Source: Gammaproteobacteria bacterium
GTDB taxonomy: Bacteria > Pseudomonadota > Gammaproteobacteria > CAJXQU01
NCBI GenBank assembly: GCA_965238175.1
Contig: CBDEGZ010000003.1
Span: 1,440,001 to 1,504,000, forward strand
Direction of reading: 5' to 3'
Length of the DNA: 64,000 nt
Part shown: positions 58,576 to 60,260 of the stretch, in pieces
Layout of the letters: every line of letters begins with the position of its first letter
Numbering within the stretch: position 1 is the stretch's first letter
Notes under the pieces: model-generated
Seen by the model: the letters and a program-made list of their open reading frames with translations, nothing else
Told to the model about the DNA's origin: nothing
Database searches by the model: none
Program-made: the position numbers and the translations under genes

Positions 58576-59214
58576 TTAAAAAAGTTTAGCCGCCTCTATT
58601 GCAGCTTGCGTTCGATTATTGACACCTAATATTCGAAAAATTGCCGTACAGTGTATTTTTACCGTAGGCAAAGCCATATCAAGTTCACGGGCAATTTGTT
58701 TATTTGAATGGCCTTGGTGAATCAGATGTAAAACTTCGATTTGGCGTTTTGTTAATCCGCTCTCATCAATTTCGTTATTATTTAACTGGACAGGTAGTTC
58801 ATTAATTTTTGTATCAACTTCTATTTCAAAGTTGATTGCAGGACAGACTATTTCTCCCTTAAGAATTCTACCAATAACATGGCTAACAGTTCGCCATGTA
58901 AAATTAGTCGAGACGCAACCATTAGCACCGCGTGAAACGGTTGTACGAATTTGATCACTTGTTTCAAAATCACCAACAACTAAAATAGGTATATTTGGGA
59001 GACCAGCATGAAGTTGTTCAAGAATAGCCCAGCCATCCTTCGTTAAATCCATGTAAAGAACGATCAAATCATAGGCTTCAGATGTTTTTTGCTCAGAGAG
59101 AGCAGATTGAAATTTAGTTGCTTCATATACATATGCGTTTTCATCATATTCTTTGATCAAATTACAAAGACTATTACTGAAAAGTGCATACTGACAGATA
59201 ACAATTGCTTTCAT
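58576..59214 (-). CDS. NarL/LuxR-family regulator with degenerate receiver domain
   Basis: HTH LTKRQIEVL.LI..G.SNKQIAREL.....TVK.H...IFR.LGV.NRTQA; the receiver lacks the acidic pocket, phospho-Asp and Lys. Confidence 0.9.
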   Translation of the reverse strand: MKAIVICQYALFSNSLCNLIKEYDENAYVYEATKFQSALSEQKTSEAYDLIVLYMDLTKDGWAILEQLHAGLPNIPILVVGDFETSDQIRTTVSRGANGCVSTNFTWRTVSHVIGRILKGEIVCPAINFEIEVDTKINELPVQLNNNEIDESGLTKRQIEVLHLIHQGHSNKQIARELDMALPTVKIHCTAIFRILGVNNRTQAAIEAAKLF

Positions 59215-60260
59215 ATTTCAGGGTTAAGTTGATTCAAATAGTTTGCTGTTTTCGTAACAGCATGACCTGGGATTGATCCATCAATAAAACCTTCTTCATC
59301 GAAAATCTGTGTCAGTTCATTATCATGAATTATCGGAATATGATCTGTTTCTGCGACATCGATCATTCGTTTCAGCATTGCCCCATTTCCTTTACTCAAG
59401 ATGATTGGTAATTCCATATCAGGTTCGTAACATATCGCTATAGCAACATTCGCATAGTCTGTCACAATCATACGAGTTTGTCTCATCCGTTCATCAAAAT
59501 CATCGTTCACAACTTCTAAGAACATTGAACGTCTGGCACCTTTGAGCATTGGATCGCCTTCGGAATTTTTATAATCGCGTTTTGCTTCTTCTTTAGTCAT
59601 TTTTTGACCTTCAAGAAAATAATGTTTTTGTAGTAGAAAATCAAATATGGATAAAAATATTAAAAGGGGTAAGAGTGCCAGAAACATTCTGGTAATCATT
59701 ATTTCTAACAGCGATAAATAACATTCAAGATCACAGTACTCTGTTTTAGCAGGCAAACTCTTAATGGTCTCGATAATAAGGAAAGATGTGATAATGCCAA
59801 TGAAAATGATTTTTGCACATGCCAGCAACGTTTCGCCGACACTTTTCAGAGAAAAAATCTGCCCGGCATTACTTACTGGATTTATTCGTTGAATTTCTGG
59901 TTTTATAGCAAAAAAAGCAAAGATTACTCCAAATTGGCTAACACTTGAGAGTATTATGGCAATAGTAATGATCACTAACAACGGTAAAATAATAAATTTC
60001 AATACGATGGAAAACATATGGATAAGTGCTAATGGAACAGCTTTTTCGAAATCCATTGTATAAAACTGTGAGGGAGATTGGATAATATCAATCAGGTATC
60101 CAAGGATATTGTCCCAATGAACATAAAAGTAAAGTGCCGCTATTAGCATTGACGCAGCAGTAACAATTTCTTTACTTTGGGGGACTTGTCCCTTATCACG
60201 GGATTCCTCCAGCTTACGTTTGGTCGCTTTTTCGGTTTTCTTACTTTTATCTTCAGCCAT
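59211..60260 (-). CDS. sctU: T3SS export switch SctU, atypical
   Basis: KTEKAT.RKL...R.KGQV..SKE, 4 TMs, KP....INP, KMTKEE.KRDYK.SEGDP..K..RR; NPTH is replaced by DYAN. Confidence 0.9.
   Translation of the reverse strand: MAEDKSKKTEKATKRKLEESRDKGQVPQSKEIVTAASMLIAALYFYVHWDNILGYLIDIIQSPSQFYTMDFEKAVPLALIHMFSIVLKFIILPLLVIITIAIILSSVSQFGVIFAFFAIKPEIQRINPVSNAGQIFSLKSVGETLLACAKIIFIGIITSFLIIETIKSLPAKTEYCDLECYLSLLEIMITRMFLALLPLLIFLSIFDFLLQKHYFLEGQKMTKEEAKRDYKNSEGDPMLKGARRSMFLEVVNDDFDERMRQTRMIVTDYANVAIAICYEPDMELPIILSKGNGAMLKRMIDVAETDHIPIIHDNELTQIFDEEGFIDGSIPGHAVTKTANYLNQLNPEI

Follow-up and report, generated by a model that had tools for sequence, protein, structure and literature searches.

Does a T3SS (type III secretion system) need the break in its switch protein SctU, or does it need only the partners that read that break? 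The question is raised by a 64,000-nucleotide stretch of a gammaproteobacterial genome (hereafter the window; coordinates prefixed G000:C3 lie on the same genome's contig, beyond it), in which a T3SS locus encodes a full-length SctU that lacks the textbook autocleavage site of the FlhB/SctU family, the NPTH motif with its scissile Asn-Pro bond. Reviews call this motif conserved (Wagner 2018, PMC6140923; papers are cited here from excerpts), yet the whole lineage to which the window SctU belongs lacks it, in at least 81 50%-identity clusters among the nearest 148, while keeping the domain, contrary to a motif thought universal. Among the members of the lineage are Rhc-I systems from Sinorhizobium, Mesorhizobium, and Bradyrhizobium that are experimentally tractable, and the question can be asked where secretion assays exist. 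Our preferred reading, which we hold with good though incomplete confidence, is that the protein is an intact SctU from a T3SS in a sister branch of the rhizobial Rhc systems, and that NPTH was lost once, before the two branches split, and replaced by a varying turn. The absence of NPTH is an inherited family trait rather than a private lock or a sign of decay, and the protein is natural and very probably non-cleaving.

The motif position, fold, and constraint in SctU

By sequence and fold, the protein belongs to the FlhB/SctU family, with a full-length profile match, an N-terminal membrane domain of four helices, a charged linker, and an alpha/beta C-terminal domain. The PF01312 (Bac_export_2) match spans residues 7-341 (E 3e-72, 244.1 bits), and the TIGR01404 SctU model gives 256.2 bits, under its equivalog cut-off of 358. 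In phmmer alignments to solved FlhB chains, the stretch IVTDYANVAIAICY is aligned to IVTNPTHYSVALQY, and the NPTH columns are filled by D268-Y-A-N271; DYAN also aligns to the NPTH of YscU, HrcU, and others. The original prediction had claimed this replacement of NPTH by DYAN, and the open reading frame (ORF), the PF01312 match, and the phmmer alignment agree with it. The strings KMTKEEAKRDYKNSEGDP, IILSKGNG, and DNELTQIF are all found in the SctU translation.

An AlphaFold2 model, run with an alignment of 82 NPxH-less sequences, has a mean predicted local distance difference test (pLDDT) score of 92.3 and consists of long helices (residues 30-110 and 138-218), linker helices (223-260), and then the strands and helices of the C-domain. 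The structure prediction that had been proposed as a check on this domain returned a kept fold, in which DYAN is the turn joining strands 264-267 and 272-277. Foldseek matched the model to the C-domains of YscU, CT091, and EscU with template modeling (TM) scores of 0.89-0.92 and root mean square deviations of 1.1-1.8 Å, and with scores of 0.83-0.92 (normalized to the target) when FlhB C-domains were included. The best-ranked matches were the single-chain YscU mutants N263D and N263A (TM 0.92), a ranking to be read in the knowledge that continuous chains naturally align longer.

Comparison with the 72%-identical sister gene by the Nei-Gojobori method (NG86), with synonymous divergence (dS) near saturation, indicated purifying selection over the whole gene (nonsynonymous divergence, dN, 0.165; dS 1.10; dN/dS 0.15) and over residues 263-349 (dN 0.136; dS 0.666; dN/dS about 0.20), and the linker gave a ratio of about 0.06. 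Linker residues M221, K231, E234, G235, and P237 are invariant in the alignment of SctU relatives. Mean column information in NPxH-less versus NPxH-bearing sequences, a comparison that is only indicative because the diversity of the two groups differs, was 2.01 versus 1.84 bits for residues 1-210, 2.42 versus 2.43 for the linker (211-262), 1.74 versus 3.27 for the motif region (263-270), and 1.87 versus 2.40 for residues 271-340; the greater divergence noted earlier for the domain after the motif, relative to the transmembrane and linker parts, is therefore true at the level of the clade as well. The turn has no conserved residue in the NPxH-less clade, where the commonest residue per column reaches 16-44%, while the core of the C-domain is fixed (Y278 91%, P280 100%, P285 99%, and A303 86%). 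Given a fold predicted intact, a low dN/dS, and fixed core positions, the C-domain is constrained, whereas its loop and some of its surface can vary freely.

Distribution and origin of the loss

The nearest protein to the window SctU, 72% identical and encoded in a fully syntenic locus (L016, protein P0002) of a gammaproteobacterial metagenome-assembled genome (MAG), reads DYTN at the motif position, and the next-nearest proteins, at 38-40% identity, read GSQA or DAEL. A genome scan with one genome per species yielded 80 related loci, 65 of them without NPxH, among which are about 29 from Thiotrichales (Thiothrix and Thiolinea) and many from alphaproteobacteria. A profile search of 1.84 billion cluster representatives returned 15138 family members at E ≤ 0.001; the best 150 of these 15138 representatives (50%-identity clusters) supplied 148 for the tree, the window protein and a 257-residue fragment being set aside, and NPxH is missing in 81 of the 148. 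The collection of NPTH-less homologs by family alignment, as the original prediction had proposed, thus found many, and mostly in one clade.

In a FastTree phylogeny of 253 sequences, calculated with the eight motif columns removed, 151 of the 156 NPxH-less sequences group in a single pure clade (support 99), and at least four state changes are required; where the site is present (n = 97), the NP pair is kept in 97/97 and NPTH exactly in 76. One branch of the clade (56 sequences, support 97) unites the window SctU with Thiotrichales, and the other (95 sequences, support 99) holds Rhc-I, Rhc-II, Rhc-III, Acetobacter, Labrys, Mesorhizobium, a Klebsiella pneumoniae plasmid, and others. The alternative that all close homologs of the window protein keep NPTH is contradicted by the DYTN of its sister and by the absence of NPxH from all 56 sequences of its subclade. 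As the window protein falls outside the 95-sequence Rhc branch and in its sister in this SctU tree, we file the locus, on the tree of this one protein, as a putative undescribed sister group of the Rhc family. The Klebsiella plasmid, pAP855 (L108, 26974-28020), is a large IncF/IncHI1B plasmid from a blood isolate and carries an Rhc-branch sctT-sctU pair whose SctU has no NPTH (ASPQSW).

NPTH is ancestral, because FlhB and all the other families keep it. Among reference SctU proteins from annotated plasmids, it is present in YscU, a Pantoea Hrp1 protein, Ralstonia HrcU, a Providencia SPI-1-type protein, and a Desulfovibrio protein, and also in the SctU of Bradyrhizobium japonicum plasmid pS11L-3 (L098), which accompanies a needle-family gene, is not of the Rhc-I type, and lies outside the NPxH-less clade. 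The simplest reading would be a single loss preceding the divergence of the Rhc branch from the Thiotrichales-type branch, which is likely but not secure. In this reading, the window SctU would serve a T3SS of the sister branch otherwise found in Thiotrichales such as Thiothrix and Thiolinea, and the lost loop would have been replaced by a shorter turn that differs from lineage to lineage.

Several points weigh against this reading or limit its reach. Because loci and representatives alike were selected for their relatedness to the query, fractions such as 65/80 and 81/148 are not family-wide frequencies. A quick IQ-TREE run (LG+G4, 88 chosen sequences) again placed 47 of 50 NPxH-less sequences in one clade, but the support of that clade in the Shimodaira-Hasegawa-like approximate likelihood ratio test (SH-aLRT) was only 70 and one inner node was unsupported, which is what leaves a single loss likely but insecure. 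In every tree, three NPxH-less representatives (P0160, P0191, and P0204) are not part of the clade, and the 253-sequence tree excludes another two (P0087 and P0140), so the loss can recur; the first three look like independent losses. The motif positions of P0160, P0191, and P0204 read AAPDD, VDDAN, and KGAGP, and one of them adjoins Ralstonia HrcU in the tree. Finally, the uncleaved state of the window SctU, and of any RhcU, is one that we infer.

True Rhc-I clusters were recognized by the annotated genes nolW, nolB, nolT/sctJ, nolU, nolV/sctL, nopX, nopP, and nopC, and their RhcU proteins are listed with the Rhc-II and Rhc-III ones in Table 1. The RhcU of Rhizobium etli CFN42 p42d (L096:13935-14732), as annotated, ends just past the linker, the whole C-terminal subdomain being missing. 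In the excerpts consulted, Rhc-I is described as functional and as exporting the pilus proteins NopA and NopB, NopX, and effectors, and it is the only Rhc type shown to be functional, while SctP is described as unidentified in any rhizobium (Tampakaki 2014, PMC3973906); a gene like hrpP or yscP is reported missing from all Rhc subgroups (Gazi 2012, PMC3574062; Tampakaki 2014). The main text of Gazi 2012 contains neither “NPTH” nor “cleavage”, and its additional SctU trees and tables could show the motif. Within the open-access literature, we found no paper mentioning the absence of NPTH from RhcU or any natural SctU, and published alignments may show it.

The original prediction had called the window protein a natural, non-cleaving switch protein. 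The first part stands, as the protein is natural and its Asn-Pro site is missing through neither sequence error nor decay; the second is well supported by inference, in that Asp takes the place of the catalytic Asn and the Pro has disappeared, and SctU is most likely uncut and would most likely stay a single chain. It would still fold normally, with four transmembrane helices, a canonical linker, and a beta-sheet/helix C-domain, and presumably still sits under the SctRST gate. The machine would do without the flexibility that cleavage provides, and no partners of the cleaved loop are detectable. With no FliK/YscP-type substrate-specificity-switch (T3S4) domain and no HrpJ/SctW gatekeeper found for it, any ordering of substrates would be achieved in another way.

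Missing partners and competing explanations

Neither the HrpJ/SctW family (PF07201) nor the needle family (PF09392) was found by hidden Markov model (HMM) searches in the window's own genome or in 12/12 other NPxH-less genomes or records. In NPTH-bearing records, PF07201 was found in Yersinia, Providencia, Pantoea, and Desulfovibrio, and PF09392 in Yersinia, Providencia, Desulfovibrio, and B. japonicum pS11L-3. The ruler family PF02120 was found nowhere linked to the locus, the only matches in the own genome being at 2.717 and 2.727 Mb. HpaC, a T3S4 protein, is reported to bind HrcU in the region of NPTH (Lorenz and Buttner 2011), and the idea that loop and readers were lost together is a coherent one. 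Here too there are points on the other side. The Rhc-I plasmid of Mesorhizobium loti 582 carries PF07201 and PF09392 matches about 320 kb from RhcU, as the only one of five further records with matches to either family; the PF02120 model recovered YscP but had no match in the records of Providencia or Pantoea, so that it misses rulers other than YscP and its blanks are weak; and the co-absence of ruler and gatekeeper rests on essentially one evolutionary event and on Pfam models of limited reach. The M. loti matches lie beside a second SctU (L115:1186-2271, plasmid p_1, about 306 kb), which is interrupted by two in-frame TGA codons, and the fetched stretch around it holds no NPTH-coding sequence.

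A further point of the same kind concerns the secretin, whose gene is divided in the Rhc family between rhcC1 (N-terminal part) and rhcC2 (pore part): with secretin probes, no linked pore gene was found in the window's branch (30 loci listed of the 80 scanned). The own genome holds six secretin-domain ORFs, none within 300 kb of the locus, which share only the common domain with RhcC2 (23-35% identity, E about 1e-21), and none stands out. In the genomes of five relatives there are 22 secretin matches, whose genomic positions relative to the T3SS loci are not certain. One ORF of 289 residues in the own genome (G000:C3:1800127-1800456; L015:1432-2301, reverse strand) has weak Secretin_N and Secretin matches; it was rejected as the T3SS pore, as its neighbors are purB-like and DUF7931 genes and it has no linkage to the T3SS. 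Similar ORFs of about 293-299 residues occur in the genomes of two relatives (G001:C45 and G005:C1).

The needle is a different matter. In 17 Thiotrichales loci, an ORF of 67-83 residues lies between the YscE-like and YscG-like genes, the position of yscF in Yersinia. At the window locus, these two genes abut, and it is past sctJ that the candidate small ORFs are located. Pfam gave nothing significant for four of these and six of the Thiothrix ORFs in the F position (best, HrpA_pilin, E 0.018). An HMM of the 17 F-position ORFs had its best match in the 74-residue ORF of the window locus, a weak match (E 0.0024) with strong composition bias, to be read as a lead. In a complex model of the YscE-like protein, the tetratricopeptide repeat (TPR) protein, and this ORF, the score was 0.87, versus 0.44 for the best of three controls, and passed a mark reached by 58/80 solved complexes and 2/110 mismatched pairs; three runs share at least 78% of contacts, the partner pLDDT is at least 72, and residues 46-74 of the partner are placed in the TPR groove. 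A comparable complex, YscE-YscF-YscG, has a solved structure, and the pass may reflect likeness to it, the binding being predicted only. With needle-type chaperones and a modeled partner, there would be at least a filament subunit and something else to export, and the machine is probably not needle-less and single-purpose. The co-loss of sctF, which the original prediction had raised, is therefore doubtful here, even with the Pfam needle family undetected.

The lock that the original prediction envisaged, in which an uncleaved SctU would hold the machine to one substrate class, with early-type export only, as in engineered Asn-to-Ala mutants, has to be weighed against this. Intermediate substrates are not secreted by non-cleaving mutants (Wagner 2018, PMC6140923; Monjaras Feria 2015, PMC4620466), and no gatekeeper, FliK/YscP-type ruler, or Pfam needle family was detected for the machine, nor a secretin pore gene in the locus. 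However, the loss of NPTH is common to the whole Rhc lineage, and Rhc-I, with an RhcU equally without NPTH, exports NopA, NopB, NopX, and effectors (Tampakaki 2014); the block by uncleaved YscU affects only those substrates that carry a particular signal, and a tip protein is secreted again once an effector signal is grafted onto it (Wagner 2018); and the needle-type chaperones and their modeled partner are kept in the locus. By analogy with Rhc-I, an NPTH-less SctU would be compatible with several substrate classes, which leaves the lock unsupported and, in our view, unlikely.

Nor does it seem probable, and we think it less so than a lock, that SctU undergoes cleavage after all, whether at Asn271, the shifted Asn of DYAN, or through another protease, and keeps its two-chain state by other means. 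An Asn does stand at the fourth position in both the window protein and its sister, and cleavage by a foreign protease, even elsewhere, restores function, which indicates that the break matters and not the motif (Monjaras Feria 2015). But this Asn is unconserved beyond the two sisters (the nearest representative, P0066, reads DYTK, and the rest of the subclade GSQA, DIGI, DMGV, and others), the turn has no residue that is conserved clade-wide, and no protease gene is linked to the locus. Decay of the system, with motif loss as one symptom, is very improbable, for even though an insertion sequence (IS) transposase lies within the locus, the secretin is only an N-terminal piece, SctU scores below the NCBIfam cut-off, and the R. 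etli RhcU is truncated, the core T3SS genes are all open and full length, dN/dS for SctU is low, the IS and about 900 bp extra lie where two convergent operons meet at their 3' ends, operons that in L016 adjoin with no IS and only 17 bp between them, and at least 25 of the 30 Thiotrichales-relative loci listed keep the gene order, with the short secretin ORF in its place. The unusual SctU is no ground to call this genome's system defective.

A canonical paralog does not appear to serve the machine either. The genome holds two PF01312 matches besides the window SctU. One is an FlhB of the same family that, unlike the window SctU, keeps NPTH; it lies directly upstream of FlhA in a flagellar export operon and hence belongs to the flagellum, while the assignments of the neighboring fliLMNOPQR and flhFG rest on ORF order and size. 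The other, an ORF of 87 residues (G000:C3:2727000-2727560; L003:146-1758), corresponds to the part of FlhB after the cleavage site, starts right past the NPTH position, and directly follows a FliK-like ORF (PF02120).

Returning to an inherited loss in an intact SctU, we offer a wider proposal as a tentative one, in which our confidence falls a little short of even. The Rhc systems and their Thiotrichales-type sister may form a large lineage, including working symbiotic injectisomes, that gave up autocleavage, the T3S4 ruler, and the SctW gatekeeper in an apparent single step, with substrates ordered by another mechanism or not at all; the window's branch would, in addition, do without a dedicated secretin pore.

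Gene content and relation to known systems

The features of the locus are collected in Table 1. Along its full length, the 208-residue N0+N1 protein shows 24% identity to the NolW proteins from two Rhc-I clusters (E 4e-20 and 3e-19), and a short N0+N1 secretin ORF is also present in Thiotrichales loci. The window SctD matches the ORF ahead of sctV in the Sinorhizobium fredii Rhc-I cluster (E 8e-11). For the 207-residue protein, there are only atlas leads: a cluster containing needle_F (14% of members; 0.91), NolB (0.89), and HrpB2 (0.85). The LuxR/NarL-type regulator gene is conserved after sctU in L016, L021, and L023; its receiver domain scores under the Pfam cut-off (25.7 versus 30.2 bits), and the sctU-coupled protein may be an atypical response regulator.

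Table 1. Features of the T3SS locus, the same-genome FlhB, and RhcU proteins of rhizobial systems
Feature	Position or source	Strand	Evidence and remarks
STAS-domain protein ahead of sctV	47775..48191	+	PF01740; conserved in L016
sctV	48284..50353	+	PF00771, 705 bits
sctN, ATPase	50354..51688	+	PF00006, PF18269
sctO	51685..52206	+	PF07321 YscO
208-aa secretin N0+N1 protein, NolW/RhcC1-like	52203..52829	+	PF21304 and PF03958 only; no secretin pore domain
sctD with Y4yQ-type C-terminus	52893..54332	+	PF16697, PF21937, PF21934, PF23893
YscE-like needle co-chaperone	54310..54564	+	PF08988
TPR protein, YscG position	54554..54979	+	PF14559; weak HrpB1_HrpK match
207-aa protein, adjoins sctJ in Thiotrichales loci	55005..55628	+	No Pfam match
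IS transposase, between convergent operons, outside the machine	55914..56948	+	PF13551 (HTH_29) and rve
245-aa protein, last gene of operon	57832..58569	-	No Pfam/NCBIfam match; ortholog at same place in L016
LuxR/NarL-type response regulator, start overlaps sctU stop	58576..59214	-	PF00196, weak PF00072
sctU	59211..60260	-	349 aa, full length, without NPTH; PF01312, TIGR01404, AlphaFold
C-terminal subdomain of SctU, residues 263-349	59214..59474	-	Fold kept, surface divergent
D268-Y-A-N271 codons, turn in place of NPTH	59448..59459	-	Alignment and model
Linker of SctU, residues 211-262 (KMTKEE...EGDP), canonical	59475..59630	-	Conservation, dN/dS
sctT	60278..61063	-	PF01311; TIGR01401 214 bits, above cut-off
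sctS	61088..61363	-	PF01313, TIGR01403
sctR	61373..62029	-	PF00813, TIGR01102
sctQ	62033..63142	-	PF01052, TIGR02551
sctL	63145..63735	-	PF06635 T3SS_SCTL
sctK, 3' part, gene continues past window end	63719..64000	-	PF06578 YscK
sctJ, upstream of sctK	G000:C3:1504434-1505318		PF01514 YscJ_FliF
FlhB with NPTH	G000:C3:1516970-1517992		PF01312 424.6 bits; 13 kb past window end; FlhA directly after
Rhc-I RhcU	Bradyrhizobium guangzhouense		NPTH position GPAM
Rhc-I RhcU	S. fredii CCBAU 45436		NPTH position GTAV
Rhc-I RhcU	M. loti 582		NPTH position GKAI
Rhc-II	NGR234 pNGR234b		NPTH position EEGA
Rhc-III RhcU	R. etli p42d		265 aa, protein stops before site

Ahead of the T3SS (40363-47608, forward strand) lie genes for homoserine O-succinyltransferase, an aminotransferase, homoserine dehydrogenase, and threonine synthase, an amino-acid biosynthesis run that places the locus in an ordinary chromosomal context. 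About 3 kb from sctJ, a gene on the forward strand (G000:C3:1508326-1511289; L004:4326-7289) encodes a 987-residue collagen-triple-helix repeat protein with nine PF01391 stretches; two paralogous ORFs of 81 residues flank the region, and the interval from sctJ to this gene contains ORFs of 73 and 74 residues. T3SS genes in L016, L019, and L038 likewise have collagen-like matches beside them, and the protein could be a substrate or a surface fiber of the T3SS.

The closest systems are the Thiothrix, Thiolinea, and gammaproteobacterial MAG loci (L016-L044), which share the SctU subclade (support 97), the gene set, and the lack of NPxH. L016 resembles the window even in gene order, including the regulator, the ORFs of unassigned family, and the collagen-like neighbor. 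SctU identity across these loci is 33-39%, with L016 excepted at 72%. Within the open-access literature, judged by title and abstract, we found no paper on the T3SS loci of Thiothrix or Thiolinea.

Among characterized systems, Rhc-I shares with the window an SctU of the same overall length and linker, without NPTH and in the same NPxH-less clade, a NolW-like secretin with N domains only, a Y4yQ-type SctD tail, and the lack of SctP and SctW. Its RhcU, in contrast, is only about 23% identical (tblastn) and sits in the other main branch of the clade, and its operon runs nolB-rhcJ-nolU-nolV-rhcN-...-rhcQRSTU, whereas the window has sctJ-K-L-Q-R-S-T-U, with sctN beside sctV on the opposite strand. 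Rhc-I also carries nop genes, with the RhcC2 secretin pore linked and a response-regulator gene close by, while the window system has YscE- and YscG-like chaperones and a regulator of the LuxR type and lacks a linked secretin pore. Features of the Rhc family further include the TtsI regulator and promoters with a tts-box; the regulator linked here is of the LuxR/NarL type. Rhc-II and Rhc-III, like the window system, are uncharacterized and have an SctU without NPTH, but they are alphaproteobacterial and lie on the other branch; Rhc-III is without rhcC2, comparable to the missing linked pore gene of the window, whereas Rhc-II has a linked RhcC2, and the Rhc-III RhcU is without the C-subdomain that the window SctU keeps. 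With the Ysc-type injectisome, in which a YscF needle, a YscP ruler, a YopN-type gatekeeper, and a full secretin accompany the YscE/YscG chaperones, the window shares the YscE-like protein and the TPR protein in the YscG position, but PF09392, PF07201, a linked PF02120, and a linked secretin pore are absent, and its SctU branches away from YscU. The last comparison is with engineered proteins, namely YscU N263A and N263D, EscU N262A and N262D, SpaS N258A, and inactive CT091, whose single-chain C-domains have the same fold as the window model; Asp268 is the same substitution as in the Asn-to-Asp mutants. In those mutants, the change disables the secretion of intermediate substrates, whereas in the window lineage it is inherited and accompanied by a rebuilt turn and a domain surface that differs, and the lineage has working members.

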